From Lytechinus pictus (taxonomy: Eukaryota), in the NCBI RefSeq assembly GCF_037042905.1, contig NC_087251.1, positions 47,432,001 to 47,496,000 of the forward strand: a DNA stretch of 64,000 nucleotides, in the 5' to 3' direction. Made by a program: the position numbers and the translations under genes. Shown piece by piece: positions 44,760 to 64,000 of this stretch (position 1 is its first letter; each line of letters opens with the position of its first letter). Below the pieces are notes generated by a model that was given only the letters and a program-made list of their open reading frames with translations, ran no database searches and was not told the origin of the DNA.

Positions 44760-45828
44760 AATAACTCATTGAATAACATTTTATTGTGGGTATACATACA
44801 AGGTACTTCATTAGCTCAAAATCAATTCAGTATTTTTTTTTATCATTTTCAATTATATTTTACATTCGATTGTGCAAGTTTTACTGTTCAATATATAAGC
44901 ATGTAGAATGACCAAGGCATGTAAACATTACAAGTACACTTTCATTTGCTGTGTTATTGCAAATTTACAGACAGAAATGCACTGTGCATCGTGCTACAGA
45001 CAAAAGCAACCAACACATACTGGTATGATAGCACTAACTGTTATTGCTAAGATACCTTAACCTTATAATCATAAGTCTACATGAAGCAAAGGAACAGAAG
45101 TGAAGGTTTGGGATTTGACTGGAAAAGCACACAAAAATTGCATAATTTCTAGGAAAAAATCATATGATTTCTAGGAAAATTGTCAGCTATCTTTTAAGAA
45201 GTAATATAATCGAAAGCAAAGTCTGTTTGCTATCCATACAAACTCATATGATGGTTCTTATGTCTCAATGCATACCAACCCCCTTTCCATTTACTTGAAT
45301 ATCAAGAATTGGAACCGATTGTAACAAATTGCAATCCTTGTAGATAGCAGTCCTCGTGAAAAGTAAAATAATCCAAACATACATGCATGGACTGGTCATG
45401 TACAAATACAACATATATATATCATCCAGCTTACACGTTTCCATTTCTCAGACAAGAAACTCATTCTCTTGCAAAAAAAATTAACACAAAACATAGAGTT
45501 ACTGGTAACCATTAAAATGACAATATATTTTTTCCTGAATTTAGGTGTTAGGATGGTGGTAGATTGCTTGTGACTGTAGATATTTCTACCTGCTTCTCTG
45601 CATATATATTTTTCTGTAGAGAGATTAAAAGAAATGCTTAAACTAATACAAAAGTCACACCACTGATAGATGCAGGAAAGATTGAACATATACTAATAAA
45701 AATAAACAAATCAAATCAATTGTCTGATGATTCATTTGATATGTCGCATAGCTGATTCTCAGAATCTATTTGCAATATCATGAAGTAACCAAGTTATAAA
45801 TCATTGGTTTTTTTTATCCAGAACATTG

Positions 45829-45881
<53 letters not shown>

Positions 45882-48335
45882 TGATATGTGGATGGAATTA
45901 GGTAGATGGGCGGAGGGGGAGGTGGGGGGGGGGGGGTTAATAGAGGGGAATACATAATACAAATACATTGTACATTACACGGTATCAAACAATAAAAAGA
46001 AAATCAGATATTTGCACATGGTGATCACGAGTTGTCCGAATTTGGCTAAGAAAAATAATAGAGGCAAGAATCTATGAATCAAAATAGACAAAACTAAACT
46101 GTATCTGATGTCTGCTGAGCTGACGATATTAAAAAATCAACAACCCTAAACAGTATTTTATGATGATTTCTGAGATGCAATCAAATTGATTGTACGGATA
46201 TAGCATATTACATTAAACACGAAATATAAACAGTATTTTATGATGATTTCTGAGTTGCTATCAAATCAATTGTACGTATAATGGCATTTCCATGTAGGCT
46301 TTGGCTGTTTGGCAAGGCACTATACATAGCACACATTGTTGATGATTTGGTTTGTAATGTAAATTAACATGGATGATACAAAAACACAATACAAAAAAAA
46401 CCAGCACGTTCTGATTCTTGGCTTCTGGCTGCCGTGTAGATCAAGGCACGTGGAACTAAAAAATGGCGACCCTGGGTTTGTTGTTTATTGCTAATACCAT
46501 TTGGTGATCAAAATAATTCATAACCACATTTCCTGTCTGAATAGGTGATTAAATAATAATCAGACTATTTTTCAACTTATATCTCTTTTTCTTTTATGAT
46601 TTTCTGCTGCAATAGATTTAAAACCTCCCACAATGATGGTCATAAACATTAGATCATTTAAAGAAAGACATTTGAATGTCCACTAATTCCCTGCACATTT
46701 AATGTAAAAACCGCAGAGTACAATCAGACTTTGTTTTGAAATATCACTTGATTATTAAAACAAGTCTTTTGTTAAATCCTTTTGTTAAATCGTGAATTTT
46801 GTTTCCATAAGCATATTTTTTGTACCAATTCTGCCATCAGAAATAATATGTAAAATACACTTTGCACTTTGATGACAATTTTTTACATCCTTAAAGAACT
46901 AATGCTGAATGTGAGTTGATATTCATTTCATTACAAAGTTACAATGCATTAACAAATACAAAATACATCACACAGGCACTTGGATGTATGCAGATTCTTA
47001 CTGTTTGAAATAATTGCAGTGCTTTTGCAAATGTCGTCAAAATACTGAATTACAAATTGTTTTCAATGAACTACACCTACTCTAAATACAATACCAGCTA
47101 ATACCATCTACCATAAACGCTACTAAAAATAATCATTTAAATAGAAAAAAAAAATGCATGTATACATAATAAATGATTACACCAAACAGTACAATTAAAA
47201 CAATTTATAAATATAACACTTTAAATGTGTATATGCAAATTAAGGTGAACAGAGATACATTGAGGGTTAAACCTTCAAACCATAAATACATCATTTTTGT
47301 TCCATTTGTTCCTGGCTAAAATCATTTCTCATACATAAACAATAAAATCATAATAATACCCAGCTTGCTAATGTGAAATACCAGCATTTCGACTAAATTA
47401 CCCAGAAGGCAGTCTTCAAAAATCATAGACTCGGTAACAATCGACATCATCAAAACATAACCCCTACCTACCTCCATGAAGTATGAAGCTCTCCAACTCA
47501 AATTTACATTGTTTTTGAAGAGTTCTTTATAAATAATTCTCCAGCTCAAAATTTTGAAGCTATAGATCACATTGGAATATCCAATGCTTCGATATTACAC
47601 AAGCTAAGCATATACAATCTCACTGGCCAGTTAAAGCAAAGATTCTTATCTTATGCACATGCAGTACAAGGCTCACATAACATTACCATTCTGATATCTT
47701 ACAACATTTGTAATCATTATGCACATCATTTTTTGGACATAGTTGATCATCAAAGCTTCTTTCTTTCTTCAAGCCATGACAGGATTTTAGCTTTTCATAA
47801 CTTCATGCTATCACTATTATCCAGACTGGGATAAAAGCAAGATATCTATAGAAGTAATAGCAACAGGTCATGACCCTTACATAATATTACATTATATTTG
47901 TTGCAAAATAACTGTACATTTGGGAATCATTTCAAATATTCAATTGATTAATCAATATTACTTGGATTTACAATGGATATATAAAAAGAGATATAAAGAA
48001 TACATGATTTTCTTCTTTTTTTCATGCTGTATCTGTAGCAGTGGCTTCGAGGAGGCATGTTTTTGAAACCTCTGATCTACAAAATGAACACATATCATTT
48101 CATGAATGTTTTATTTAACTGCACAGCCATAAATACAAGGGAATGACTGGAAATAGCATCCAACTTTTTTTTTCTCTCTCCATTCCAAATGAATGGCGAA
48201 TCGGTTCCCACATTCTTTAAACATAAAATTCTAGCGTTAGTTACAGTACAGGACCAAGCGGCTGTAGGATTCCATGCAGCTGATCAGCAAAGAAATTTAC
48301 AGACGTTATAAACTCTACGACCGATGGTGTTGCAT
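44760..48335 (-). other. Probable ~3.6-kb 3'UTR of the CBM48 gene
   Basis: I recognised no MITE in this stretch after the stop codon; minus-strand AATAAA at 44780-44785 (and another near 48110). Confidence 0.45.
45829..45879 (+). repeat. (GA)n microsatellite
   Basis: Direct reading. Confidence 0.95.
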
Positions 48336-48386
48336 TCATGCCACAGTTACGGTGTTGTTCAGACCGAGCTCGCCTTCTACGGTGGC
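48336..48386 (-). CDS. CBM48-protein terminal coding exon
   Basis: ATTTTCTCTTTCAG| ATVEGELGLNNTVTVA*; matches the final CBM48 strand (AMPK beta FGTVNNFINV). Confidence 0.87.
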   Translation of the reverse strand, partial: ATVEGELGLNNTVTVA

Positions 48387-51300
48387 CTGAAAGAGAAAAT
48401 TATGGGAATAAAGATTGAAAAAAAAGTTATAACTGGTCATGATATATGAAGAGAGGACCACATAACACAAACCTTAGTAATCAATCATGGGCTGATTTCT
48501 ATGATCAATTACATTGATAATTGTGAATAATCAATTGTAAAAATTAGCCACGCAATCAATTGCTAAACTTAATGATATAGGCCCGTACTCTGAACTCGGG
48601 TTTAAATCAAACCCTTGTTTAAAGTTGTGGTTTAACTATGGAGAGCCAATTGGAGCACAAATCCCTAACAGAACACTAACTCATATGACACCCAAATTGT
48701 TCATAAATGTCCGGGAATGATAACTGAAGTATTTTTCTTCATTATGAAAGCAAAAGGAAACAAAATAGTAAACATAAGAAATATACAATATGAACAGAAT
48801 TTTTTAACTTTTGGCTCCCCATAATTTTAGCACAGTGTTAAACCATGGTCTAATTTAAAAAAGACTTCAGAATACGGGCCATAGGGTGTTTCATAAAGGA
48901 CTTTTAACTGTTGTAACTTTGCCATTATCGTAACTACCATGGTAACCTTGATTATGATTGGCTGCTGAGCCCTGTTACCATGGTAGTTGCCATAATGGCA
49001 AAGTTACAACAGTTGTAAGTCCTTTATGAAACAGGCCCAAGGTCATGATAGATAATGAAAGGTTTACATCCCGATGGACAGCATTGTACAGCAACAGTAA
49101 CTCGGTACATAGCATTTCAATATTTCTAAATTCTTGGGGACATTTCATAAAAGTCGCCAACATTGACTATACAGCTTGGGAAATCATTATTAGACCTTGC
49201 TGAATGAGAGCTTCGTAGGCAAATAAATTATTTGAATTTATTCGAATATTGACCCTCTGTATTTTAATTTTCTGATTGTCTCTATATTTGTATGCCCAAC
49301 GGGTCGTGTGGTCCAGTGGTTAGAGCATTGGACTCATAATCGCAAGGTTGTGAGTTCGAATCCCAACTCTGCCATTGTCTCCACTTTGATAAAAAGGCCC
49401 AAGAGTGATATCTGTCGTCTATTACGTCAGCCACTATGACTGATTAACCTAGACGTAAAATGTTTCCAAGGTAATTGGTTATATACCAGCTTGGCGTTTA
49501 CCAGCAAAAAATGCTGTCCTGCCGAGTTCCTACGGTAGTTACCACAAACAGAAACAGAAAACAGAATTGTTGTGATATTTTCATTTTCATATTCTTTATT
49601 GTTCTTTTCTTTGCTAATAGTGCTTTGCAACTTCTGTATAAAGCACTTTATGAATTTTGTACATTATTATCTAATAATTATTTCCCAAACTGTATTATAA
49701 ACTTTGACAATATCAGTGAAATCCTTGATTTCTGACTGTTCTGATTGTCAGAATAGGACAATTTGTCAAAGCTGACAAGCTTCATTAAATAGTGTCCAGA
49801 TCCAAACTATTTATATTTGATGGTTTTCTAATGCATCATAACTCCTCAAATTTTCCTAGATCTATATGTTTCATGATTTTTTTCCTCTCTTTCTTTTTGT
49901 GATTTAAATGTAATCAATTTTCACTGCAGACAACAAGAACACGCTTCTGGTACATTTAAGTTACAAAACGTTCCTCACTATGTTGAAACTCAAAGCGTAA
50001 CACAAGACAAAAATCTTTGAAGTATACAATTTCTAAATAGAAAATGAACAAAGTATAGCACCACTGCAATCACGGACCCAAATAAAAATGCAAACAAAGA
50101 GAATGAAAGCCAATAATTTAGCTGACCATTAAATGTTCATGTCTGTATCACACAAAGATGATTTCATAAACGTGTAATTTCTAAAATTATGTTGTGAGAT
50201 AAAATATGCATGCACATCAAATATAGAAAATACAATATCAAAATCTCGGATTGCAGTTTGAAGACGATATAAAGCTATGAACCAGAAATATATCTACATT
50301 TTCATGCACATATCAAAACACACAGAGGTATAACTCCTCTGATAATTTTTATATCAAAAGACTATTGTAACCCTGGTTATCATCTGTGTCTTTAATACAG
50401 ACAGAGCTCAAAATTTGATGATAGCCAATCAATGTCTTACAATTTGGGGTCACTTTCCACTCTATTCATTATTTTGTTCTGTTAATGCGGAAATTAAACT
50501 TAACATGCCTTTCTCATTGTTTATGCTCTTTTGTGAATCTAGAGGAACCAAGATGAAATTGCAAAATTAAGTAAAAAAAAAAAATTAAAAGGAAATAGGT
50601 GAGAAAACAAGAGCTTGACATTATCAATGTAATTTTGAAAAAGAAAACACTTTGAAATTAATTTAAGCATATTGAGTAAAATTACGTAAGCAATACAGCA
50701 AATGATTCCATACAAATATTAAAAAAAAAACAATTGATGCTGATACTACCTGATAGGCCTAAATTCAACATATAAAATACATTCTTCTGAATAATTCCAT
50801 GAAATAACTATCTTTTTTGTAGTATGTTCAATCCCATTTAGATAATTTTAATATTTCGATGAGTCAGCACAAAATGAAGGCCAATCCTGCTACGAAGGTC
50901 TCATATCAGATACTTTATAAAATTGCCCTTCTTCTTTGTCTACTTTGGAAACACCTGCATCCTTTACTGCTGAAGATTCTTGCAGATTCTTAAAAACATA
51001 TGGAGTATTTCATGAAAAAAAAGGAATTTCACGGAATATTGTTTATAAAAATCCTTGCATATCTGATTGGCAAAAAGCAAATTAGTCATAAAACTTTTCA
51101 TGAAACACTCTAAATGTTTGACCTGAACTGCAGGATAGCCAGAAAACCAATATCGTTGGTTTGCTGTCAAAAAGTTTTGAGGACAGCCCAGGAAAAGTTG
51201 CATTTTAGAATCATGGTAATGGCAGCAACCCCCCCCCCCTCCCCCCGCTTTCTGAGAACGTAAGTCTACCAATTCCTGTCAGGAACTCTTACAAGCTAAT

Positions 51301-54300
51301 AGACGATTACACCTATGCTTCAACTCTAAGATATAGCTTTTTTTGAGCTGTCTTCCCTTTTCTTAAGTTTTGAGAAAAAGGGTTTTAACAGCTCAAGAAC
51401 TGGATTTGGTCACAAGGAACAATACTTGACCAACACACCACAGCAATAAACAACTCTTGCCAGAATGAACAGGTAAGGAACAGCACATCAAAATGTGAAC
51501 AGCGCCCCCTTCTGGCAGGCATCTGCCATGCTTCTCACCTGCTTGGAGTCTACCTTGTCTTCACCATCGACTACAAACTTGTAGCTGTAGTCTCCTGCAA
51601 GGAGGTCCATTTTAACACTGAAGCAGCCATCACTGTAAGTGTGTATGTAGTGGAATGAATGGGGTTATAAGATATTCATAAAAAAAACTTGAGGCAAGGC
51701 TGGGGGAGGGGATGAGAGAATGTAATAATGCTGCCTGCATAGTGCATACCAAGGTCGAGGAGGATACTTTGCTGATTATATCATTTGCATAGATTTACTG
51801 GATTAATCAAAAGAGATGATCCTTGCAAATTCTGATTTAAATTTTACCAAAGGAAACAAATAGCTTTTATTTAAAATTCAAAGTCCTCCTTCCTGTCCCC
51901 TCCTATGCAGGAAACATCATCCGTTCTTCTCATCACAAAGTTTGATACCATCATTCCATGCTCATTCCTGAATTGATATTCTTCAAGAGGAATTTCATTA
52001 CCATTATTATGCCCCACTCGCACGCACCAGCAAAACTAACTCCAGACCGACTTATAATATGCCATTGAAAATAATGCAAAAGCTTTGGCCGGTCTGGAGT
52101 CGGCCTCGTTGGTGTGATTGTCCCATTTCAAGCATCACCAAATACGGATCAAGGCCGGTGGTCCCTTTATCAATGTCTACGGGGATTCCGAGGATAATCA
52201 TCCAACGAAACACAGATGAGCATGAAGCGATGTACCAAACTCCCCTCCAGGCAAGCCTTCATTAAATACACAAACATACAAACTGTTGCATCTTGTTACC
52301 TGTTTCATACTCGTCTTCCACTCGCCGTCTACGATAAACTTGTATGTCCATTCCCCGGGGCCAAGGGACAGCGTTTGTGCAAACGTGCCTTCCTCACTAC
52401 CTCATTAAAATAGGGTATGGAGTAGGGGTGGTAGTAGTGGTGGTGGAAGTAGTGGTAGGGAGAATAGCAGGAGGGTATGAAGAAGTTAGTAGTGGTAGTA
52501 GTAGTAGTAGTAGTAAAAGGGTATGAAATAGTAGTAGGAGTTATCATACAGGTTAATAGTGAGGCAGAGGGGATATGTATTAGTTATATAAAAAGTTTAA
52601 TCAGTTCACATTTTTCATTTCCAATTTAGTATGAATGCAACACGTGGATTGGAAGTGCGCATATTATTTTGGTTGGTAGATGAGGTATGTGTGAGAGAGG
52701 ATTGATATATTTCAAAGGAAAAATCATTCAAAAAATGAATGAATTCAAAACCATGCATGACGTGACCAACAATGAATGACATTGTATACAAAGAAATTGC
52801 AAGGGGGAGGGTGTCGTTTGTTTGTTTGGTGTTTGCACAGACATGAATTCATTTGATTGAAAGAGATTTTGCCATTTTATCATTTGCAATAAAGGTTTGT
52901 AAAAAAGTGCAAATATTTGTATTCAATAAAATTGAGCAAAAAATTAAATCCAATCAAACCACAGCATGCAGTATTTTCAAATATGAAAAAAAAATAATAA
53001 GATTGTGAATTATAATGGATAGAATGGGGAAATAATTTTTTCTAATGAAAATTGAAATGAAAAAAAAAATAAATTAAAGGTTTGATCAAAAATGAAAATT
53101 GAAAGAAGCAATTAGAGGTTAGACAGAAAATGAATGTGAGGAAAGACAAAATACAAAACAAATAACAAATGAGACACAAATACATCTTATTCCAAATAAA
53201 CAAGTTTAAGGAGGTAAATGAAAAAGGCATGCAGCATGCAGTACACCTCCATGTATTTCAAGCCATTCTGACTTCACAATCTGTGACTCCAATATTGAAC
53301 ATGTCACATATAGGTATTCAGTCAGTAAGCTGGCCCTGATAAAAAGTAGCTTCTTTCATCAGATTGATATTCATGATTAGAGTGGTCTTGCATATTTAAT
53401 GAGCTTAATGCTGACCAAAACACCTCTTTTAATTTGTTCATTGCTGCTCTAAATATTTATGGAATTCATTATTTTGGTATCATTGAAAAGAAGAAGAAAC
53501 ATTCTTTCGGGTCATATGTTTGAATTTATTTAGAAATTTTGCAATGTTGTTGAAAATTTTGATCTAAAACATGCTAATTTTTTTTTTTTTTCACCTTACA
53601 AAAGGTCATATTCATATTTGTTTGAGCCAAAATTATTTTTAGATCATAATAAAGCTGAATATGTTAATGGTATAGGTTTCAAGAGAAGAATTGGTTTAAT
53701 TGGGTTGAGATCACACTTTTCATAGGCCAAGTAAATTTATCAGCTTGAAAATAAGAACACTGTGCACTCTGATTGGTCAAAGAGACTACACACCCAGCCA
53801 AATTCAAACTGTTTCCATACTGGGGCCCTTCCAAGGTCACACTCCCCATGTGGAAATCTCTTCAAATTAACCTCGCCAGTTGTTCTGAAACCTTATCCAG
53901 CCAATCAGAACTCTGGATTTCATGCATGCAACTCAGAAATTTTAGAAATCTTGTCTTTTACCTTGGTGAGAAAAGTGTAATCTTGACCCGATCAAAAGGT
54001 GACACATATAAGAGTGGCAGTGTAAGAAAGTACATATTTTCAGCTTTGTGATGATTTAAATATGTTTGAGGCTCAAAATAGTAAATTTTGCACAATTTGC
54101 AAAAGAAAACAGAAGAAACTCAATTTTTGAGGCATCTCTTCAGGTCTGACATTTACTCTATCAAATGGTGCAATAATATTTAATTTGACCATAGGATAAA
54201 GTGGTTAAGTTCTTAGAGAAAGAAATCTCATGATTCATGAGATTTTGCATGGAGGATTCAGCCACAAGATGATTTGGATGAATCTGGCCAATTTGCTCAT

Positions 54301-57300
54301 TACCAAAGGGACCTATGGCCTGACTGTATTTGCTATGAACATCAAGTGATATTTGTTTTAAATCTCATGAATAAATGTAGATATCAACTTCAATTAAAAA
54401 AAAAAGAAGATTAATTACAAGCCTTTAATTTGTAGTAAAAGGTTAGTTCAGTGCTATGGCATCACCAATACTGATTACGCTTTTTTTTAACTACAAGAAG
54501 AGGCTGGCTGATTATTCAGAAATTTGGACAATAGAATTTTCTACATTTGACTGTTCATATCAAATGCAATGATAATTTGGTTAAAAAGTGACAGTTTGTA
54601 GAGTGTGCAGAGGGACTACTATTCAACGCAATTTCAAATCTGCAACAATTATTTCATATTTGTCCAAATTCTTGCAGATGAAGTTGTGCAATGGGTGTAG
54701 CCAACCTTTGCATTTTGGCAAATATAGGGGTTGTTCATAGGAAAAGAGCAACTTGGGGAATTGTCCTAGATCCCATTGCATAAAAGTTACTATTACAGTA
54801 AATTGGTCATCCAGTAGTAACTACTATGGTAACAATGCTCATCAGCCAATCAAATTCAAGAATAAGCCCGTTCACGGTTAGCTCATGATCAACTTTTCTC
54901 AAATGACCTTTGTGATTTTTCATTAGGATAAGCACTATCATTTTCAAATGTAGATGTTGTGTAAGCTTTACCAGTAGAGTATTCAAATTATAAGAACAAA
55001 AGGCATTGTATAGACCAGGTGACTAGAATAGTACATCAGGGATAAACTTTGGAAATCTGTTTTATTGTCTGCCTTTGGCACATTTGACTATTGTTTAGGC
55101 TACTGTCAAATACCAGTGATTATGAAGGCTCTATTTATTACTCTTCAGCTTGGATGTGATAAAATGAATATTTTGAAAGGAATACATGAATAATCATAAA
55201 ATCACAAATGCCTATGCCAGTGAATTTGAACGCCACCTTCATGGTTTATCTCAAATGACCTTTTTCTGCTCGTGCACAGTTTACAACCGTGAACAGGCTT
55301 ATTCCATGGAAGATACCAATGGAAGACAAAGTTACAATAATCATATTTTTTATGCAACAGGGTACAGGTTGGGGTAAAAAAAAATAATAATAATATTAAT
55401 TGTCAGGGAAAACGGGTTATTTTTCAAATGGGCAATGTCCATGGTCATGGTCTAAGGGGCATACTTTCTAAGAACTAGTTATGAAGATTAATGTCAGTCT
55501 CAATATGTAATGAGGGGAATGAAGCAACTATTTCTAATCAAGAGGTATCAGCATGCATCGAAGGAAATGTGACCAATAATTTTGAGAAATCATCTATTCT
55601 TATTTAAAGATACACGTCATATTAATCATACTGATATCCTTGACAGTAACTATCTTACACAACAGCTACTGATAAATGTTCTCATGTTTGGAATTGATAT
55701 ATTAGTCAGTAATATGCTTTTCACACTGCATTTCCTTAACCCCGGTCTATCCGTAACCCCAAACTATCCTTTTTTCTTTGTTTCGCACTGTCTTTCTTAA
55801 CCCCATACTATTTGCTTAGCCGGGGTTAGCACCTTAACTCCCGACTATCGCACAGCTCATGAATATTGATGATTTTACCATACAGAGTGTGATTAATGTG
55901 CAATTTCGACTTCTGTGATTGGCTAATGCTTCGCCTCACTTTTCCTTAGTCCATTTTTGTTTCACACTGCATCTCTTCGCACCGCAATTGTGGTGCTAGC
56001 ACCAAAAATAAGCCGGCTAACCCTGCTTTTTTGCAAGGCCAGATAGTACCATACTATTTACCGTGCTAGCCCACTTTGCTAAAACGTAGTGTGAAAACGA
56101 AGTGGGCTAAGCTCAACCCCGGAAAATTGGTGGGGCTAAGACCCCTCCACACACCAATTTCCCTGGGTTAAGGAAAAAGTGCAGTGTGAAAAACATATTA
56201 GGTACTTGTCAAAAGTCAGAGCCCCTTCTTTGCATGGGAATCCCGCAAGCGGCCTTTCATTACGAAATCTCAAACTTCATCTTACACAAACAATATGGAA
56301 TGCAGGAAAGCCACTATGAAAAGATGCATAGTGCCTTTATTGCGGAATTCCTGCTAAAAGTCGAGGCAGAGACTTATGAAAGGGTACCTCAATTATTGGG
56401 AACAATGATGCATCTACTCTTCCTAAAATCCCTAGCATGGGAATCCTGGCTCTAGGTCTTGATAGATATATTGCTCTTTACACAAGAACCCTGATAAGAA
56501 CGAGTTAATGGTGAAAAATACTCACACTTGCGTTAGTTGCACTCTTTCTTTCCAGTCATTGAAGCTACCGGTGACAAAGACATCCTGTCCACCCTCCTCC
56601 CAGCGGAATTCAACAGACGTCTTCTTCTCCTCTGTGGGTTGGTCTCCCGATGGTCCATCTAGATGGTCAAAAAGAGGAGTAGTGAAATTATTAGGAACCA
56701 GTTAAGAGTGCTTCATGAAACACCTCGTCAGTGATACTTACCAAAAATTTGCTCTGAGCCAATCGGATGCAAAGGTTTCAGTAGCGTATGATTGTTTCAT
56801 GAAATGCTCCCCTGTGAGATTTAGGCTCCCCCCAAAAAAAAAATCCCTAAAAACTGCCATAATTATTAGTGTATCATTAAGTTTGCCTGAAAAACCAATA
56901 TCTCATAAATCTCCAGACACTACGACTGAATAGCTTACAAATCTCAGGTGATTCCTGTCTGACCTAAAGGTTTGCTATTATGATTATATATATCATTAGC
57001 TGCAAGAGATCCTGAATGTAGTTTAAGACCAGGAAACGTGTTGATCTACTGATCCCAAAATCTTTGACTTGGCCTTTGGTTGATGTCCCTGTCTTACTTG
57101 TAATTGCTGATTCTGATACAGGACTGTCATCGGCCTCTTTGGCTTCTACCGCTGCGGTCTCCTTGGATGGTTCCTCTGGAGCTGGTGTCTCAGCTGGCTG
57201 ATCGGCCTCAGGGGCGGCATCTCCGTTCACCTCTGGTGCGGTGTTCTCGGAGGTCGCTGCTGGCTCGGGTTCTGCAGCAGTCTCGGGTTTGGCTGGCTCG

Positions 57301-60300
57301 GGTTCTGCAGCAGGCTGTTATGAATAGAATAATAGATATATTCAACATAAGAAAAATGGTGAGAGATTCATTTGCTATCCACAGCAAAGGAAATGATCAA
57401 TATCTGGGAATACCATAGGAATTCATTCTCAGGCAGAGAAGTCTTGGCAATTATAGATTACATGTCAAACATTATGAAAGAGAGCTCAATATCGGAAACA
57501 AACCTCAACCGGTGTTTCTGTCAGTGTTTCTGCTGGTGTTTCAGCTGGTGCTTCTGCCGGTGTTTGAGCAGGTGTTTCTGCCGGTGTTTCAACTGGTGTT
57601 TCTGCTGCTGTTTCTGCTGGTGTTTCTGCTGGTGTTTCAGCTGGTGCTTCAGCTGGTGTGTCAGCTGGTGTGTCTGCAGGTGTTTCTGATGGTGCTTCTA
57701 CGGGTGTTTCTACTGGTGCTTCTGCTGGTGTTTCAGCTGGTGTTTCTGCCGGAGTTTGAGCAGGTGTTTCTGCCGGTGTTTCTGCCGGTGTTTCTGCTGG
57801 TATTTCTGCTGGTGTTTCGGCTGGCGTTTCTGCAGGTGTTTCAGCTGGTACTTCTACCGGTGTCTGTAGTAAAATATCACATTAATTATATGAATAATTC
57901 AATAATAACCTTAATCTTTTCAATATTACATGTTGAAACAATGGTTATCACTGCCACTACTACTTCTACTAACACTACTAAGACTCCTACTAATGGCAAT
58001 AAAACATCGAGCATAACAATCCGACATTATTCAATACTTTCTAAGTCAGTCCCTCTCTTCAACATGCTATTGTACTTGATTAGCTACTTTCTACTGTATT
58101 TTCATTTCCTGACATCAGATCGTTGCAAGGAAATCATTTTGCACCACACTAAATCTACATGTATTTCTCCTCTCATTTACCACAGAAGAGTCAATTATTA
58201 CTATTTCATACCAATCATGTCATTCACTGATATGATGCCATAAAATTCATGAGTCTTTAATAGCTTCTGTGTAGCTCAAACACATCACATTACAAATTCA
58301 TATCTTATTTTTCAATCACAGTACATATAGACAAAAGGACTGTAACAAATCATGAATTGAATTCAAGTCAACATAGAAATTGACTCTATTCCATATAAGT
58401 ATCAGTTTCATAAATACCAAGTTTAATGAATATATGCTAAATAACACAAGCATGATAGAAGATTGCATCAAAAAGGTTTCAGTTTACAGTAGTTTGTAAT
58501 CTAAAACTAGGTCAGTCCTGTTATGAAACTTGTTAATACAATACACTGTGGCTAGACTATTGAATACACTTTTATATTTCCTTTCACTCTTTTTAATCTA
58601 TCATCTTCACTTTCCACATTCCTCTATTTCAAAAGTTTATGTTAATTTCACATTTGGTGGAGAGACTTAAAGCAGATATAATACAAGCTAAGTATGCCAA
58701 TGAAAACGCAAGGGGTGTAAATAATACAAAGGAACAAAAGGTCCAGTCAGGTCCAGTCACCATTTATAAATAACTTGTGTCACTTTGGGTATAGTTTCAA
58801 AGTCTTGGAGACCTGTTACAAATGAACGGCTGTTCAAACCCAAGATGATTAGTTCTCCTTTATGACCCATATATTATTGAACCTTGACTAAACTAGGCTA
58901 TTTGGCACAGAACGCAGGAAAGGGGGGTTTACTAATATCCCTTTTGTCTATGCCAAGCTTAAAGAGGGTCAATACCAGATTAGTAGATTTTTTCATCTCA
59001 AATATTGCCACTCTTTGTAAAAGTAGCAATATATGTTTATATTTGTAAATGATTTCAATGGTTTCTACCTGCAATCTGCTTTGTGTCAGATAAATAAAGG
59101 CTAACTAGCTATGCTAGGTGCAAGTATTCCAGATAGAAGACTTAAGACAGGAAGGAAACGCACATTAGGGAAGATGGTCTTTATTCCTCGTCCAATATAC
59201 ACTTTACATTTAGGTATGGGTGTGCAAATAGTGCTCAACGATGCTTTGAGGGAAGGAGTATAAATGGATTATACTGAAACATTGCAAGGTCTAAAAGGAT
59301 TGCAACATAATTCTATCGAAATAGAAACATAAACCTCAATTACCTCCTACCCTCATCCATTCCCCCCCCCCCCCAACAAAAAAAAAATTCAGAAATCTAC
59401 CGTAACAGTACTGCTTAGATGGCTATCCCCCCGAACCCCCACACCCCAAGGGATTGGAGACCAAGAACCCCGGGAGCTGGTTGACCCCTATGTTACAGTA
59501 ATACTGAAGCAAACACTTCTTGGGCAACATACTGCTCACCACTGAAAGACACTGCACTGGGAAAATTACCCTCATAACTATCAATTGATGCATGCCCTTT
59601 AAGCTGATTATCTTCCTAGTAGCTTAAGATTATTCTTGGAAAATAACAATGTTTTATAGCTGTGTGGGAGGAAACTGGGAATTTGTCCAAGAGATATCTG
59701 TTCACAATTTACATTTTCAGAGGATAGTGCATCTTCCCTACCTCTGAAGGCGTCTCTACTGGTGCCTGAGCAGGTGTTTCCACTGGAGCTGAAGGTGTTT
59801 CTACTGGTGCTTCTGATGGTGTTACGACAGGTGCTTCTGATGGAGCTTCCATCGGTGCTTCCGATGGTGTCTCAACCGGTGTCTCTGAAGGAGTTGTAAC
59901 TTCTGTTGGTTCTGAAGGCTCTTCTGCTTTTGGTTCCTAATATTGGAAAAGAAGAACAAATAGTTGGGATTCAAATGAAGCAGCTTTAGCTATGTTTAAA
60001 ATATAGTTTATATTATAAATATCAGTTGAGGTGTGCAATTTGAATACTAAACAAAAATGCCAGAGAGAATTCTGTCCAAAGTGCAGTGCATTGAAAATTT
60101 TGTGTGACAAAAGAAAAAGACCATGCCCAATAATACATCTAAAGGAGTGAGTTAACTTTGACTTGATAAAAAGGAGAAAAACATGTGGATAACTTTGCAT
60201 CATCAGTATACCTCCACTGAATCTGTTTGTGCAGGTGCAGGTGTGGGTTCTGGAGTGGGTTCTTGGGAAGGTTCTACTACTGGTGTTACTGGTTCTGGTG

Positions 60301-63300
60301 TTGTTTCTGGTGCAGGCTCTGGAGTGGCTTCTGATGCTGCTGGTTCAGGTTCTGGTTGGGACGGTTCCTCGGGTGCACTTTCAACTGGTGCAGGGGGTGC
60401 AGGTGAGGGCTCTGCAGGAGCAGCAGCTACAACAGGTGCAGCAGGTGTTGGTTCAGGTTCTGACGGTACCTGCTCTGGTTGGGATGGTTCTGAAGGCGCT
60501 TGTTCTTTGACGGGTTCAGGTTCTGCTGATACAGGAGCAGGCTCATCTGGTTGAGTTGATGGTACTGATGATGGTTCCGATGGTTCGGTTGGTACAGCTT
60601 CAGCAGCTGCTGGTTCCGTTGATACTGGTTCTGGTGATGCTGCTGATTCTGCTTTAGGCTCCTCTGATGCAGGTTCTGATGATTTTTCTTCAACCTTTAA
60701 AAAAATACAGGTAACAAAAAAAAATGTTAATAAGAAAATGACCCCAAAATCATTCAATCTTGTATTAAATACACGCAGCTGCTGCCTCAGCTCCCCAACG
60801 GCAGTAGCTACACATTATCTATTGTAGTGGACGCGCGTACAGACAGTATTCACTGCAGTGTCAGTGCAAAGTAAAGGCGGTATTTTCATGGAAATGAAAT
60901 TGATCGATTGGCAAAAACTGTTGGATAATTTACATGTGTACCTGCTAAAATGGTTGAGGTATACATCGAGCATACCTCGAAAGAAAGAGAATGACTCGAT
61001 GAAACAAAGTTTTACAATTAGATCATCGCGGCGGGTATTGCAGCTTCGCAATGTCAGCCATTGTTATACTGACTGTAGGTTCAAACATGATAGATAGCGC
61101 TGTCCATATTGAGGCCTAGTGTTAGCTAGCGAGACATGAGCTGTTTTTCTTGGGAAACTAAAAGAGAATGTGATGAAATGTTTGCGCTGCGCCCTGATTT
61201 ACTGAAAATTATCCTGCCTAAGTTCTTTCTGTGATTTGGGTGGGATATTTTCATGAAAAATAATGTTGTTGTATGTAGACTATATTGGAAAATATATGTA
61301 ATCAAAGTGAGTTTGCGTATAGGATTGAGTTTAGATTAAAATCTCATTTCCTCACGTACTAGATTGAATTGAAAAAAAAAATCTAGGCAAGAGTGCGTCC
61401 AGATAATAGAGAGATCCGGATAAGGGGAGGCAGGATAAGAGAGGTCGGACTGTATATTTTGCTATCCTCAACCCAGGTGAGTTGATTGATGCCAGGCAGG
61501 ATCAATTCCTTGAATAATGTGTGCCGATAAGAACGCAGTGTTTTGTATCAAGGACCACTATACATGTAAATGTTACTGATTATTATTACCATTACCATTT
61601 TCACTGGTACCTTTTCTTCATTCTCATTCTTGTTAAAATTATATCAATTAAAATTATAATTAAAAGAAGAGGAATGCCTCTGGCGGTCTCACCTGCATCA
61701 CACGATTCAATACAGCAGCAGTGCTGACTTTGAAAACTACTATAAAATAATTATTCACAAAAACACCATTCATATGATACAATACTACGTTCATTGACAT
61801 TTGACCTTGATCATGTGACCTAAAAATTGTCAGTGATACTTGATTACCCCTATATCCACATTTTATACACTGTATCTATAAACTTTGAAAGTTATGACAG
61901 CAATCTAATAATTACCTCTAAAATGGCCAAAGTTCAATGACCTTAAATGACCTTTGACTTTGGTCATGTGACCTGAAACTCAAGCAGGATGTTCAGTAAT
62001 ACTTGATTAACTTTATGTCTAAGTTTCATGAATCAGATCCATAAACTTTCAAAGTTATGATGGTAATTCAACAGATACCCCCAATTTGGCCAAAGTTCAT
62101 TTACCCTAAATGACCTTTGACCTTGGTCATGTGACGTGAAACTCAAGCAGGATGTTCAGTAATACTTGATTAACTTTATGTCTAAGTTTCATGAACTAGG
62201 TCCATATATTTTTCTAAGTTATGATGACATTTCAAAAACTTAACCTTAGGTTAAGATTTTGATGTACATGGTCTAAGTTCATTGACCCTAAATGACCTTT
62301 GACCTTGGTCATGTGACCTGAAACTCAGGCAGGATGTTCAGTAATACTTGATTAACCTTATGGCCAAGTTTCATGAACTAGATCCATATACTTTCTAAGT
62401 TATGCTGTCATTTAAAAAACTTAACCTTCGGTTAAGATTTGGTGTTGACGCCGCCGCCACCACCGCCGTCGGGAAGCGACGCCTATAGTCTCACTCTGCT
62501 ATGCAGGTGAGACAAAAAACCTATCACATATCATGTCAGTGCACGAATGCCCTTGGCTAAATATTGCGCACCCCATCGGTGCAGAAATGCCCTAGACAAT
62601 GCCCTTTAATATGCGTGCATGCGATGCACAAAAGTGTGGTGTTATGGGTGCCTTCCATTGGCACAACAATATTTCTTAGCTGTAAATATCAAAGCTACTA
62701 AAAGCTTGTCAATATCTGCCTGACATTCTATTGGGTTCAGTTTGACACAGTAATCGATTCGCTAATTGCAAATCATTAGATAGTAGTTAAAAGTCCAGAA
62801 TATCATAACATTTCTTCACCTCTCAATTTCATAAATGAAGCATGGAGGAGTCAGTAGTGCAGATATTTCTCACTGTATACATTATGTTTTCTCATGCATT
62901 ATATATTTCCCTCACGTCACAAATTTCATACTTCTGCTGGAAGTTTCCATGGTGACTTAAAAAAAAAATTATTTGATTGTGTTATAACCAAACTGGTAGC
63001 TACTGTAAGAAGATCAATACCTTTCTTATGTTGACTACTAACGGTTTGAATTTCAAGTAAAATGGCTTTGGTGTGTTTTTTTTACCACAAGAATGCTCTT
63101 TTAAGCTGCCAAGTCCTTCGAAGGGCTGTCATATTACAAAGATTTCTTTTATTCTGCTTACAATGAAAGTCCTTCAGTAAATAATGATGCAATGTGAATT
63201 GATTTCAATTCTGAAGTTTCAAATATTTTTTGCTTCATAGAATAGTACCTGTTATCTGAGATTTACCATCATAAATATCACCGAAGTTCTAATCAGAAAA

Positions 63301-63530
63301 TATATGGAACCAATTTTGAAGAAATGCTTATGGGGGGGGTTGGGGAGGAAAGGGTTGATGCACATGCATATTCTACAATGTTTAATTGTTTCTTGTGTAA
63401 CGCTTCCAGTTCATAATTTTTCGAGCGATTATTTTTTTTGCTGAATACTTACGGCTGCTGGCTGAGGCTCTGCAGCCGGAGTTTCCTCTTTGGTAGTAGT
63501 TTCTTCTGCTGGCTTCACTTGAGCTGGTTC
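48336..63530 (-). CDS. Uncharacterised protein, 5'-partial (>=536 aa in window): long acidic P/E/A/T low-complexity region plus C-terminal AMPK-beta-type CBM48 glycogen-binding domain
   Basis: Exons 63530-63453, 60694-60212, 59936-59742, 57863-57504, 57314-57098, 56658-56526, then 52396-52300 OR 51632-51539, then 48386-48336. They join in one open frame with GT-AG introns. CBM motifs: FRWEEGG..VFVTGSFNDW, YKF.VDG, LG.NN. Confidence 0.88.
48580..48880. mobile_element. MITE (GGCCCGTA.TCTGAA TIR, ATA flanks); related copies at ~8495-8800 and ~14660-15492
   Basis: GGCCCGTACTCTGAA ... TTCAGAATACGGGCC with a 3-bp ATA duplication. Confidence 0.75.
49301..49566 (+). mobile_element. tRNA-derived SINE
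   Basis: A box TGGTCCAGTGG, B box GTTCGAATC, poor acceptor stem, unique body and (ACAGAA)n tail. Confidence 0.7.
51539..51632 (-). CDS. CBM48 second-half exon B (94 nt, phase 2-0; mutually exclusive with A)
   Basis: DGCFSVKMDLLAGDYSYKFVVDGEDKVDSKQ; acceptor CTTACAG|, donor CAG|GTGAGA. Confidence 0.88.
52300..52396 (-). CDS. CBM48 second-half exon A (97 nt, phase 2-0; mutually exclusive with B)
   Basis: EEGTFAQTLSLGPGEWTYKFIVDGEWKTSMKQ; acceptor GAGGTAG|, donor CAG|GTAACA. Confidence 0.82.
55711..56199. mobile_element. MITE with TTTCACACTGCA TIRs
   Basis: AATATGCTTTTCACACTGCATTTCCTTAACC ... GGTTAAGGAAAAAGTGCAGTGTGAAAAACATATT. Confidence 0.7.
56526..56658 (-). CDS. CBM48-protein exon: first half of CBM48 (phase 1-2)
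   Basis: (N)GPSGDQPTEEKKTSVEFRWEEGGQDVFVTGSFNDWKERVQLTQ(V); donor GT|GTGAGT. Confidence 0.92.
57098..57314 (-). CDS. CBM48-protein linker exon (217 nt, phase 0-1)
   Basis: PAAEPEPAKPETAAEPEPAATSENTAPEVNGDAAPEADQPAETPAPEEPSKETAAVEAKEADDSPVSESAIT; donor A|GTAAGA. Confidence 0.85.
57504..57863 (-). CDS. CBM48-protein exon made of 30 tandem 12-nt units encoding (T-P-A-E)-type tetrapeptides (360 nt, phase 0-0)
   Basis: CTACAG| TPVE VPAE TPAE TPAE ... TLTE TPVE |GTTTGT; third-position variation between units. Confidence 0.88.
59742..59936 (-). CDS. CBM48-protein low-complexity exon (195 nt, phase 0-0)
   Basis: EPKAEEPSEPTEVTTPSETPVETPSEAPMEAPSEAPVVTPSEAPVETPSAPVETPAQAPVETPSE. Confidence 0.88.
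60212..60694 (-). CDS. CBM48-protein low-complexity exon (483 nt, phase 0-0)
   Basis: VEEKSSEPASEEPK...PAPAQTDSVE; TTTTTTTAAAG| acceptor, GAG|GTATAC donor. Confidence 0.88.
61664..62519 (+). mobile_element. Helentron/HINE-like non-autonomous element with internal tandem array
   Basis: Sub-terminal IR GTCTCACCTGCAT (61686) / ATGCAGGTGAGAC (62501); 3' hairpin 62488-62513; about four TGACCTTTGACCTTGGTCATGTGACC units. Confidence 0.7.
63453..63530 (-). CDS. CBM48-protein low-complexity exon (78 nt, phase 0-0)
   Basis: EPAQVKPAEETTTKEETPAAEPQPAA; CTAG| acceptor, |GTAAGT donor. Confidence 0.8.
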
Positions 63531-64000
63531 CTAGACAATTAAATAGACAAACAACTCTTGATAAACCATTAAACAGCTTGCATAATATGGACAATACAAT
63601 CAAAAGTAATTCTGACATATGTGCATGGTATCATTCACCATTTCACTCATAAATCTGATTAATTTTCCCTGCATAGTAGTTAGTACATATCAGATCAAAG
63701 AGTCAATTTTTATCCATTATCTTATGTATGGAACTTTTATTGTTTTTATCTAAGATAGAAATGTTGGCTGTCTGAATTCACAACTTGAATTTTATACATA
63801 GGTCAATATCTCAAATTATGTACCAGTAATTAAATTAATCAAAATATTGGCATGAATTTTTACACCTGCAAATGCTTGTACAATGTACAGTGAAAACGTT
63901 ACCAGTTATTTCATAAGAACTTTGCAGAATATTCTCCCTCTCCATTCCTTTAACTTTATTTCCAAGGTAAGAAGGGTCGACACAAATTATGAAATACACC

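Follow-up and report, generated by a model that had tools for sequence, protein, structure and literature searches.

The β subunit of AMPK (PRKAB1/2) carries a glycogen-binding module (AMPK1_CBM, PF16561; CBM48) in which W100, K126, W133, L146 and T148 have been described as sugar contacts, mutation of which markedly lowers glycogen binding (PMC2642990). Modules of the same type are found in the yeast proteins Atg45 (Yil024c), Crp1 and Mdg1, which are described as non-AMPK proteins with PF16561 as their only recognisable domain; Crp1 and Atg45 co-localise with glycogen synthase, and Crp1 is found at the cell periphery (PMC11145338). In plants, adaptors of the PTST/FLO6 type have been presented as lacking catalytic activity and as recruiting a partner to the glucan granule, with their CBM48 at the C-terminus (PMC4339375), and mouse Stbd1 has been reported to be a transmembrane protein of the endoplasmic reticulum that is N-myristoylated (PMC5358331).

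A stand-alone AMPK-β-type CBM gene is encoded in the 64,000-nucleotide stretch of Lytechinus pictus DNA analysed here (the window), where it occupies 48336-63530 of the minus strand and extends upstream beyond the window. It is a genuine spliced and expressed gene, and the part of its product encoded in the window consists of ~450 residues of disordered Pro/Glu/Ala/Thr-rich sequence followed by a complete AMPK1_CBM module (Table 1). Seven GT-AG junctions, all on the minus strand, were identified using stranded RNA reads and transcript contigs: four of the seven have raw reads in both RNA runs (range 6+12 to 17+33, the first figure being run X19 and the second X20), joint 59935>60211 has 12+11 raw reads, and joints 48385>51538 and 60692>63451 are supported by contigs only, which come from two further runs (X1 and X15). 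The RNA signal is strand-specific in both raw-read runs, a single open frame runs through all exons, and ~860 nt of the transcript sit upstream of the window. The TGA stop directly follows the last CBM strand, and a search with Pfam profiles found no AMPKBI domain (PF04739) on this gene, whereas the neighbouring AMPK β gene matches it (E 2.7e-7); the protein therefore cannot join the AMPK heterotrimer. The CBM matches go beyond chance, since a six-frame scan of the whole 811.7 Mb assembly with PF16561 gave only five exon matches, all five in these two genes. All of the sequence statements of a preliminary description of the locus held, including a stand-alone CBM behind a long disordered region, a chain ending right after the CBM without an α/γ-binding domain, a position upstream of AMPK β on the same strand, and an upper end at 63530, which is a true exon acceptor; the junction check by RNA that it had called for is provided by the seven joints. 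It had also failed to recognise a described animal gene, and a search of the full-text literature for an animal description of such a gene found none.

Table 1. Features of the stand-alone CBM gene and of the neighbouring AMPK β gene, in window positions.
Feature	Position	Strand	Evidence and remarks
AMPK β gene	12727..22753	-	ATG at 22753; runs at least to the AMPKBI exon
AMPK β, AMPKBI exon	12727..12846	-	Pfam AMPKBI, on the fourth exon with a match
AMPK β, CBM exon	15921..16026	-	AMPK1_CBM match 15913-16038
AMPK β, middle CBM exon (94 nt)	18515..18608	-	AMPK1_CBM match 18479-18712
AMPK β, CBM exon	20770..20945	-	AMPK1_CBM match 20739-20945
3' UTR, ~3.5 kb (approximate lower end)	44770..48335	-	Continuous contigs 45943-48389 and 44791/44770-45824, runs X1 and X15; raw RNA depth 2.4-7.3 on the gene strand vs ~0
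Exon C, last coding, final CBM strand	48336..48386	-	16 codons and TGA stop (48336-48338); acceptor and frame read; profile 62-85, by homology with the AMPK β exon; joint 48385>51538 (cut +1, CT..AC), one contig each in X1 and X15, no raw reads among the listed joints
CBM exon B2, 94 nt, phase 2 to 0	51539..51632	-	AMPK1_CBM E 2.2e-6, 28.2 bits, profile 32-63; joint 51632>56526 (to exon A), raw reads 9 (X19) and 19 (X20), and contigs
CBM exon B1, 97 nt, phase 2 to 0, alternative copy	52300..52396	-	AMPK1_CBM E 1.9e-7, 31.6 bits, profile 32-66
CBM exon A, 133 nt, phase 1 to 2	56526..56658	-	AMPK1_CBM E 1e-8, 35.7 bits, profile 2-30; first CBM strands, motif EFRWEEGG, W100-equivalent Trp
Disordered-region exon, 217 nt	57098..57314	-	Joints 56658>57098 (17 and 33 raw reads) and 57314>57504 (6 and 12); Pfam search, no family above cut-off
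Disordered-region exon, repeat (E-T-P-A)n	57504..57863	-	RNA joints, spliced ORF; Tandem Repeats Finder on 57509-57863, period 12 nt, 29.6 copies, 79% matches
Disordered-region exon, 195 nt	59742..59936	-	Joints 57863>59742 (12 and 13 raw reads) and 59935>60211 (12 and 11)
Disordered-region exon, 483 nt	60212..60694	-	Open frame; joints 59935>60211 and 60692>63451 (cut +2, contigs only)
Disordered-region exon, 78 nt, most upstream in the window	63453..63530	-	Contig joint 60692>63451; acceptor AG 63531-63532, phase 0
Two inferred exons beyond the window	Window-equivalent 73247-73417, 110723-110869	-	Inferred from sequence

The middle CBM exon is present twice, B2 at 51.5 kb and B1 at 52.3 kb. 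B1 carries the motif YKFIVDGEW and retains the second sugar-stacking tryptophan (the W133 equivalent), and B2 carries YKFVVDGED, with aspartate at that position. B1 is flanked by AG/GT and its phases match those of B2; in a frame test, inclusion of both copies or of neither led to an early stop, and the two are probably mutually exclusive. The use of B1 in transcripts is supported by this frame logic together with depth arithmetic, the exon-B junctions among the listed RNA joints being those of B2. Strand-specific raw depth in the bin containing B1 is 1.77 and 1.36, compared with at most 0.6 in the five pure-intron bins examined, and reads across the A>B2 joint amount to 9/17 and 19/33 of those at the next junction upstream. 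In the contigs, depth over exon A is 54.5 in X1 vs 12.8 for B2 plus ~36 for B1, and 312.7 in X15 vs 200.8 plus ~134 (the B1 values being obtained by arithmetic on depths), sums that are compatible with B1 and B2 together approximating exon A. The second copy had been at most hinted at in the preliminary description ('either isoform'), which had not seen the part of the transcript beyond the window; new here are the RNA-supported junctions, the two exon-B copies, a putative myristoyl-basic first exon, mollusc proteins of the same layout and a census of CBM20 in the genome.

Exons A, B2 and B1 all score above the PF16561 cut-off of 26.8 bits. The β-sandwich fold of the AMPK β CBM was tested on P0015, a relative of the same architecture, in place of the window's own spliced protein. 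P0015 matches the CBM chains of AMPK β2 and β1 among solved structures (E 2.2e-17 and 1.5e-15) and more weakly the structure of plant LSF1 (E 4e-7), the animal AMPK β CBMs being its best solved relatives. In its AlphaFold model, residues 281-363 have a pLDDT of 92-98, and the modelled CBM is nearly superposable on the sugar-bound β2 CBM (top match 4yee_A: TM 0.95, normalised to the target; rmsd 0.8 Å; 44% identity). When the sugar contacts were aligned, the equivalents of W100, K126 and L146 were found in both forms of the L. pictus module; the B1 form keeps four of the five contacts, T148 being absent, and the B2 form three, with Asp at the W133 equivalent and T148 again absent. The W133 equivalent is also present in all four complete relatives aligned. 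The equivalent of Ser108 (numbering from chain 6b2e_B) is Val, as had been claimed. With no W133 equivalent in B2 and no T148 in either form, the main form may bind glycogen weakly or not at all.

At the other end of the protein, which the preliminary description had placed beyond the window, a candidate first exon of 49 codons starts MGKIFSKK, with A at -3, G at +4 and a phase-0 GT donor; it lies 47 kb upstream of the most upstream exon in the window and was found by motif search. The protein would thus begin with an N-myristoylation and basic motif, a lipid anchor suggested by the motif search and by the starts of complete, transcript-derived relatives, MGGKSSKQKK in P0015 and MGNKSGKQK in P0028, P0076 and P0101; the neighbouring AMPK β starts MGNAAAKK. 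Including the two inferred exons, the predicted protein has 642 amino acids, a computed pI of 4.05 and a net charge of -109, and the aromatics in its 564-residue disordered region are limited to F5 and Y11. Residues 1-280 of the P0015 model show no secondary structure (block-mean pLDDT 41-65). A search of a protein atlas with the disordered part gave no usable match, and no hydrophobic transmembrane segment was found in the predicted protein.

Such a chain might instead organise membranes, as an acidic protein of the BASP1/MARCKS/GAP-43 kind whose CBM fold binds a protein or another ligand rather than glycogen. A putative myristoylated start with a basic cluster, and after it a long acidic stretch poor in aromatics, would suit this reading, as would the absence of the key sugar-stacking Trp from B2 and of T148 from both forms; for that protein group N-terminal fatty acylation, a cationic effector domain and membrane binding have been described, BASP1 and MARCKS being myristoylated (PMC6478813). 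This is nevertheless unlikely, given that three sugar contacts are retained in both forms and W133 in B1 and the four complete relatives, and that the P0015 fold fits the sugar-bound β2 CBM so closely. We likewise regard as improbable a soluble competitor or regulator of AMPK-glycogen sensing, the decoy of the preliminary description, whose free CBM would occupy the glycogen sites of AMPK β or bind partners of the CBM such as debranching enzyme. The module is of the same type as that of AMPK β, with the β2 and β1 CBMs as best solved relatives; the two genes adjoin on one strand; the protein has no AMPKBI and cannot enter the kinase; and debranching enzyme is cited as binding β1 residues 68-123 in vitro (PMC6274970). 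However, a competitor requires neither the ~560-residue spacer nor the lipid-anchor motif, both of which are common to the mollusc-type proteins, and in B2, the isoform whose junctions are listed, the second stacking Trp is missing.

The AMPK β gene lies ~22 kb downstream on the same strand, head-to-tail, and none of the 56 intervening ORFs of at least 70 aa reaches a curated Pfam cut-off. The two genes agree in the position and phase (2 and 0) of both CBM introns and in the 94-nt length of the middle exon (B2 in the stand-alone gene), as had been reported. The proposal of an origin by local duplication of AMPK β was not borne out as worded. The stand-alone CBM is 37-38% identical to that of its neighbour and 38% identical to cnidarian AMPK β, so that it is no closer to the former, whereas the neighbour and cnidarian AMPK β share 55% identity and pair in the tree (95/90, starred). 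Six proteins of the same layout were found (P0015, P0028, P0076, P0101, P0033 and P0199), two of them with a named source. The gastropod Plakobranchus ocellatus supplies P0033 (GFO48696.1), which carries the label 'AMPK subunit beta-2', and the bivalve Tegillarca granosa supplies P0199 (KAJ8308510.1), listed as a 'hypothetical protein' and sharing a 90% cluster with P0101. In these relatives, as in the L. pictus protein, the CBM stands at the extreme C-terminus after a long acidic disordered region, with chains ending 0-5 residues past the last strand, and the motif EF(R/K)WEE(G/A)G is common to all in the alignments; PF16561 is the sole Pfam domain of P0015, P0028 and P0101. In the best tree the stand-alone gene groups weakly with the same-architecture proteins, six family rows forming one side of a branch (63/79, unstarred), and in 99% of 200 bootstrap trees these rows stand apart from 12 β proteins labelled as carrying AMPKBI. 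Identity of the CBM to the mollusc-type proteins is 37-50%, and that of the neighbouring AMPK β to the same proteins 40-48%, so the stand-alone CBM is no closer and the case for orthology from sequence is weak.

The tandem arrangement thus stands. As proteins of this layout also occur in molluscs, the gene is probably a member of an old family rather than a recent local duplicate. The tree test did not reject a clade joining it to its neighbour (AU p 0.31), so that truncation may have happened independently in the two phyla; the duplication would then be old or the copy fast-evolving, with a tandem position that is possibly ancestral. A lineage-specific AMPK β duplicate undergoing functional decay, its mollusc resemblance convergent, would account for the tandem position, the identical introns, the unrejected clade, the high divergence of the CBM and the loss of the W133 equivalent in B2, yet it is very improbable. 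The ten predicted exons (two inferred upstream exons included) keep an unbroken frame and have canonical splice sites; two RNA runs show steady, strand-specific expression and two more supply contigs; both exon-B copies have stayed intact; and proteins of two mollusc classes share the acidic linker, the terminal CBM, EF(R/K)WEE and the start motif.

The distribution of the family also bears on whether the protein serves as a glycophagy receptor in place of STBD1, its CBM holding glycogen and the rest linking to autophagic membranes, as in yeast Atg45 and vertebrate STBD1 (CBM20). Atg45, a stand-alone PF16561 protein, has been shown to be a glycogen autophagy receptor (PMC11145338), mouse Stbd1 is reported to be N-myristoylated (PMC5358331), and STBD1 loss has been proposed in echinoderms (PMC12913940). 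An exon-by-exon search for CBM20 (PF00686), which a diverged gene might escape, detected no STBD1-like gene in this genome and a single CBM20 exon, belonging to a GPCPD1-like gene. However, the Atg8-binding motif [WFY]xx[LIV] does not occur in the 564-residue disordered region, its sole match in the protein falling within the CBM, nor outside the CBM in P0015, P0028, P0101 and P0199, and lophotrochozoans including molluscs are stated to retain STBD1 (PMC12913940) although molluscs have this family, which argues against a simple replacement. A receptor of this kind is decidedly unlikely.

We consider the chances about even that the protein works outside the kinase as a lipid-anchored tether, keeping glycogen at membranes with a sugar affinity that is tuned by splicing. 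It is preferred over a decoy or adaptor because of the putative N-myristoylation and basic start, which is common to the mollusc-type proteins. The ~640 residues would form three parts: an anchor start, in which Met-Gly with Ser at 6 and Lys at 7-8 would direct the protein, through N-myristoylation and basic residues, to the cytosolic face of acidic membranes; a middle of ~560 residues, rich in Pro/Glu/Ala/Thr/Ser, very acidic and aromatic-poor, that would act as a long flexible spacer repelled by the membrane; and a terminal CBM48 that would bind α-glucan on glycogen particles, which the lipid anchor would fix to the membrane. The B1 form would have both sugar-stacking tryptophans, whereas from the B2 form, with Asp for the second, weaker or different glycogen binding would be expected, and the choice of exon would thereby tune tethering. 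The family may have arisen from an AMPK-β-like ancestor that lost everything after the CBM and grew its linker. If the tether reading is true, glycogen would be placed or retained at membranes independently of AMPK, with affinity set by exon choice.

Compared with known systems, the likeness to BASP1/MARCKS/GAP-43 is one of layout only. BASP1 has a long acidic disordered body poor in aromatics, and proteins of this kind, unlike the present one, are without a carbohydrate-binding module. Plant PTST/FLO6-type adaptors are alike in their non-catalytic, C-terminal CBM48 and in bringing a partner to a glucan granule. They carry coiled coils and plastid transit peptides, whereas in the P0015 model no helix precedes the CBM, and the best solved relatives of its CBM are animal AMPK β and not plant proteins. 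STBD1 is alike in its working logic (membrane anchor, disordered middle, terminal glucan-binding module), but has CBM20 instead of CBM48, and the L. pictus protein lacks its transmembrane segment and has no Atg8-binding motif; STBD1 is unrelated in sequence and is an analogue, not a member. Yeast Atg45, Crp1 and Mdg1 share a stand-alone AMPK-β-type glycogen-binding module, a likeness known from the domain alone, whereas it is the animal proteins that have a myristoyl-basic start and carry the CBM C-terminally, and the L. pictus protein again has no Atg8-binding motif. AMPK β itself shares the PF16561 module, the positions and phases of the two CBM introns, the 94-nt middle exon and, as predicted for the L. 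pictus protein, a Met-Gly-x-x-x-(S/A)-K-K type start, and the P0015 CBM is 44% identical to that of human β2 by structural alignment. The stand-alone protein differs from it in lacking PF04739, in having Val at the Ser108 equivalent, in a linker of ~560 acidic residues (in solved full-length β chains the CBM begins at residue 78, after ~70 residues), and in a middle exon that is duplicated, with alternative copies.

Pfam searches place two genes with an AMPK-beta-type CBM (AMPK1_CBM, PF16561; cut-off 26.8 bits) on the window's minus strand. Scanned in six frames, the complete assembly (811,721,768 bases in 368 contigs, the window being C7:47432001-47496000) yielded at least five exon matches to this profile (such counts being lower bounds), all of which fall in the same two genes. 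The first of these, the CBM-tether gene, is a real, expressed gene that ends in a complete module of this type and lacks the kinase-docking domain. Its expression was followed across 44001-64000 using stranded RNA-seq raw reads from two runs (X19 and X20), alongside contigs from two further runs (X1 and X15) whose RNA nature is only guessed. Seven joints are consistent with one minus-strand transcript, with all seven reading CT..AC on the plus strand and GT..AG on the minus strand, and the raw depth of the exons is strand-specific (first mate on plus, other strand about 0). Joined by their coordinates, the exons give a single open frame, of which the in-window part encodes approximately 450 residues rich in Pro, Glu, Ala, Thr and Ser; one exon of 360 nt is built from a 12-nt unit repeated 29.6 times and encodes (E-T-P-A)n. 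The three CBM exons close the protein, with the stop (48336-48338) directly after the last CBM strand, and contigs run unbroken from the stop to about 44770, which defines a 3' UTR of approximately 3.5 kb. The preliminary description had drawn the gene accurately: of its limits, 48336 matches the stop exactly and 63530 the acceptor of the furthest-upstream exon inside the window, the splicing it assumed is seen in both RNA reads and contigs, and the protein does stop right after the CBM without an alpha/gamma-binding domain.

Features of the CBM-tether gene: module exons, splice joints and exons proposed upstream (window coordinates; window-equivalent coordinates beyond 64 kb)
Feature	Position	Strand	Details
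Exon A, open stretch	56525-56701	minus	AMPK1_CBM E 1e-8, 35.7 bits, profile 2-30
Exon B1	52300-52396 (97 nt)	minus	AMPK1_CBM E 1.9e-7, 31.6 bits, profile 32-66
Exon B2	51539-51632 (94 nt)	minus	AMPK1_CBM E 2.2e-6, 28.2 bits, profile 32-63
Joint	48386/51539	minus	contigs only
Joint	51632/56526	minus	raw reads 9 and 19
Joint	56658/57098	minus	raw reads 17 and 33
Joint	57314/57504	minus	raw reads 6 and 12
Joint	57863/59742	minus	raw reads 12 and 13
Joint	59936/60212	minus	raw reads 12 and 11
Joint	60694/63453	minus	contigs only
Inferred exon	73247-73417 (57 codons)	minus	same composition, phase-0 AG/GT flanks
Candidate first coding exon	110723-110869 (49 codons)	minus	MGKIFSKK start, A at -3, G at +4, phase-0 GT donor

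Several further observations concern the introns and spacer exons. The internal exons of the disordered region, of 171, 78, 483, 195 and 360 nt (57504-63530 together with the inferred upstream exon), all begin and end in phase 0; each could therefore be skipped in frame, and the length of the spacer could vary by splicing. The intron between exons 60212-60694 and 63453-63530 holds a tandem repeat with a 163-bp unit (3.2 copies, 82% matches) at 61874-62419 (wider limits 61343-62676), over which RNA is very deep and strand-specific, with raw depths of approximately 790-863 in X19 and X20 and a contig word depth of up to 230,932. The many loose ends and odd joints of this signal point to a plentiful repeat-derived RNA that originates at many loci; the repeat has no Rfam match, and neither does 44000-64000 as a whole. 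Two intronic stretches, 48003-50003 and 54673-55339, do not belong to the gene; RNA covers them deeply on both strands and differs from the window at many fixed sites, and they are probably transposable-element copies expressed elsewhere. Elsewhere in the assembly, histone genes occur in tandem units of approximately 7.46 kb (C57, C66, C76, C95, C101, C225 and others, e.g. L016). H1 matches number at least 150, H2A, H1 and H4 lie on one strand, and the arrangement fits the early histone repeats of sea urchins; the H1 protein has no exact match among the 15 billion proteins of the collection searched.

The X1 contig carries about 860 nt of 5' sequence beyond what the window holds, which places the N-terminus outside it, and 60 kb upstream was examined for the missing exons. 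The lengths of the two exons proposed there fit these 860 nt, provided that the 5' UTR measures approximately 545 nt; none of the 35 ORFs (≥90 aa) in these 60 kb has a Pfam match at E ≤0.001. With both exons included, the predicted protein has 642 aa, a pI of 4.05 and a net charge of -109, with a composition of E 18.1%, P 18.1%, A 16.8% and T 11.2%, and its sole aromatics ahead of the CBM are F5 and Y11. Gly2, Ser6 and Lys7-8 of the predicted start form what we take to be a good N-myristoyltransferase substrate pattern, and the Lytechinus pictus protein may, judged from this sequence, carry a myristoyl-basic anchor. We infer both glycogen binding and membrane tethering by the predicted protein: the N-myristoyl/basic anchor, the acidic entropic spacer and the terminal AMPK-beta-type CBM would together make a lipid-anchored tether, which would position glycogen particles at membranes without involving the kinase. 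A membrane-glycogen tether with a splicing-tuned module has, in our judgement, an even chance of being the right reading. The protein could instead be soluble and compete with AMPK on glycogen, which we regard as unlikely. It could also act as a glycophagy receptor; the predicted 642-aa protein holds no Atg8-binding motif ([WFY]xx[LIV]) outside the CBM, which lowers this reading to one of little promise.

The middle CBM exon of the gene exists in two copies, B1 and B2, which have equal entry and exit phases, AG/GT flanks and 54% DNA identity. Inclusion of both copies, or of neither, leads to an early stop, so exactly one must be used. Among the joints listed there are B2 junctions only and no B1 junction; B1 is probably used as well, for which the indirect support is good. 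The 667-base bin holding B1 has strand-specific raw depths of 1.77 and 1.36, compared with ≤0.6 in five purely intronic bins, and the joint from A to B2 takes 9 of the 17 and 19 of the 33 reads found at the next junction upstream. Contig depths are additive, with exon A at 54.5 against 12.8 for B2 plus about 36 for B1 in X1, and at 312.7 against 200.8 plus about 134 in X15 (the B1 values being our own arithmetic, bin depth x 667 / 97). Finally, the X1 exon-A contig stops three bases beyond the A/B boundary, as assembly graphs do at a branch.

The two alternative exons differ at a known binding residue (numbering from chain 6b2e_B). PMC2642990 reports that W100, K126, W133, L146 and T148 make the sugar contacts of the rat beta1 structure and that glycogen binding drops markedly when any one of them is mutated; PMC6274970 states that W100G and K126Q abolish binding, whilst W133L partly disrupts it. 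By alignment, the equivalents of W100, K126 and L146 are present in both forms of the CBM-tether module and that of T148 in neither, and the equivalent of Ser108 is Val, as had been read from the sequence beforehand. The W133 equivalent is Trp in B1 (YKFIVDGEW) and Asp in B2 (YKFVVDGED), and the Trp is kept in all four complete relatives aligned. Under the tether reading, the mutually exclusive exons would keep or remove one of two sugar-stacking tryptophans and so switch glycogen affinity; a pair of alternative exons differing at a residue that mutagenesis has shown to matter for binding is a ready-made experiment. A rival reading, in which the protein is a membrane organiser like BASP1/MARCKS and the CBM fold binds something other than glycogen, appears improbable to us.

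Relatives of the gene were sought in several protein collections. An exhaustive HMMER search of 1.84 billion representatives with exon A (44 aa) found 75 proteins at E ≤0.001, none of them identical, so that the CBM-tether protein itself is absent from this representative library. Word-index searches scored none of seven candidates with exon A, six proteins with the CBM of a relative, P0015, and 476 proteins at E ≤0.001 among 7999 candidates with a family alignment (A1). The best 120 of the 476 comprised 117 multi-CBM proteins of approximately 380-520 aa, the named ones bacterial, and three of the family type (P0028, P0101 and P0015); this collection is apparently poor in annotated animal proteins, and missing names there say little about novelty. 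Protein-atlas searches gave generic PF16561 clusters only (best score 0.89) or nothing. The complete, transcript-derived relatives are P0015 (363 aa, starting MGGKSSKQKK) and P0028, P0076 and P0101 (326-348 aa, starting MGNKSGKQK). To these are added P0033, a fragment of the same layout from the gastropod Plakobranchus ocellatus (GFO48696.1, labelled 'AMPK subunit beta-2'), and P0199 from the bivalve Tegillarca granosa (KAJ8308510.1, 'hypothetical protein'), in the 90% cluster of P0101. The four complete relatives and P0033 have an acidic disordered body (pI 4.05-4.13), a CBM that lies 0-5 residues from the protein end and a common EF(R/K)WEE(G/A)G motif. Compared with P0101, the P0199 gene model leaves out the first two CBM exons and continues from the linker directly into the final one, which reflects either a mistake in annotation or a natural isoform without the CBM. 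These public labels, together with the CBM-skipping bivalve model, show that the family is currently mislabelled. A further non-AMPK architecture was seen in the eukaryote-like proteins P0049 and P0078 (956 and 1219 aa) and P0063 (91 aa), which have several AMPK-beta-type CBMs in a row.

The fold evidence comes from the relative P0015 rather than the window's own spliced protein. P0015 matched the AMPK beta2 and beta1 CBM chains at E 2.2e-17 and 1.5e-15, and yeast SIP2 and plant LSF1 near 3-4e-7. Its AlphaFold model (alignment A2, 16 rows) has no secondary structure over residues 1-280 (block-mean pLDDT 41-65) and a pLDDT of 92-98 over residues 281-363; the modelled CBM superposes on the sugar-bound beta2 CBM 4yee_A with a TM of 0.95, an rmsd of 0.8 A and 44% identity.

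The second CBM gene, further down the strand, has PF16561 on three exons, a start at 22753 (MGNAAAKK) and an AMPKBI domain at 12727-12846 (E 2.7e-7), which identifies it as the AMPK beta gene. None of the 56 ORFs (≥70 aa) between its start and the 3' end of the CBM-tether gene reaches the Pfam curated cut-off (three weak matches, E 0.0025-0.006, fall below it); this makes the two genes immediate neighbours in head-to-tail order, approximately 22 kb apart. The CBM introns lie at matching places in both, phase 2 after the third strand and phase 0 before the last, and the middle exon is 94 nt in each (B2 and 18515-18608), exactly as the preliminary description had noted. Its proposal of a local duplication of AMPK beta is not borne out in that form. 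CBM identity between the CBM-tether gene and its neighbour is 37-38%, compared with 38% to the cnidarian AMPK beta P0024 (Clytia), 47-50% to P0015 and 37-44% to the mollusc proteins, whilst the neighbour and Clytia beta share 55%. A maximum-likelihood tree was built from 34 CBM rows hand-chosen from the matches (83 columns kept), with four bacterial domains as outgroup and the remaining bacterial multi-CBM matches excluded. The neighbour pairs with Clytia AMPK beta (95/90), and a branch with a support of just 63/79 sets off the six family rows; in 99% of 200 bootstrap trees these rows stand apart from the 12 betas that we labelled as AMPKBI-bearing. Tree and identities together argue that the copy is not recent, and recent local duplication is lowered by both, though forcing the CBM-tether gene and its neighbour into a clade costs 10 log-likelihood units and is not formally rejected (AU p 0.31). 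That the gene is a decaying, lineage-specific duplicate strikes us as very unlikely. The mollusc proteins and the gene probably share common descent, given their shared architecture, but this is not proven. Overall, what had been observed from the sequence is confirmed, and the interpretation placed upon it is supported in part.

A wider reading, which we put forward as doubtful, is that of an overlooked bilaterian family of lipid-anchored glycogen tethers, with its origin in an ancient tandem duplicate of AMPK beta, that would place glycogen on membranes without the kinase and whose affinity would be exon-switched in this species. It is highly improbable that vertebrate BASP1-type acidic myristoylated proteins are a remnant of the family after loss of the CBM exons; this corollary builds on a likeness of layout and of the last residues, and the P0199 model already provides a CBM-skipping form. 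If the family reading is true, a conserved kinase-free protein would join a lipid anchor to the glycogen module that AMPK uses. For glycogen-rich invertebrates, with their eggs, embryos and bivalve storage tissue, it would add a new factor to the positioning of glycogen. Studies of AMPK-glycogen sensing would have a natural competitor to take into account, and the protein would show how a kinase scaffold subunit can become a structural adaptor.

The position of glycogen in cells is controlled, and its known placers are STBD1 (CBM20), PP1 targeting subunits and AMPK beta itself; to our knowledge, few animal proteins are known to have this role. The genome's sole PF00686 (CBM20) exon match scores 25.4 bits, and a GDPD-domain exon that follows on this strand, 22 kb downstream, marks the gene as GPCPD1-like (sites C15:13254942-13255070 and L011:6933-7220). 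This exon-wise scan picked up no CBM20 gene resembling STBD1 or laforin, and the candidate tether thus occurs in a genome without a detected STBD1-like gene. PMC12913940 gives GPCPD1, laforin and STBD1 as the animal CBM20 proteins and proposes STBD1 loss in echinoderms, ecdysozoans and cnidarians. The searched full-text literature holds no animal protein that combines anchor, spacer and CBM48, in agreement with the earlier impression that this is not a described animal gene; the family may already carry automatic names in annotated animal proteomes, and the searched passages of a preprint surveying AMPK in 210 species have no such protein. In yeast, PMC11145338 describes three non-AMPK PF16561 proteins, among them the glycogen autophagy receptor Atg45 and also Crp1, which is found with glycogen synthase at the cell periphery, and mouse Stbd1 is reported to be N-myristoylated (PMC5358331). 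Stand-alone modules and lipid-anchored glycogen binders are therefore known kinds; what is new, as far as the searched literature goes, is the layout of lipid anchor, spacer and CBM48 module in animals, assembled from familiar parts.
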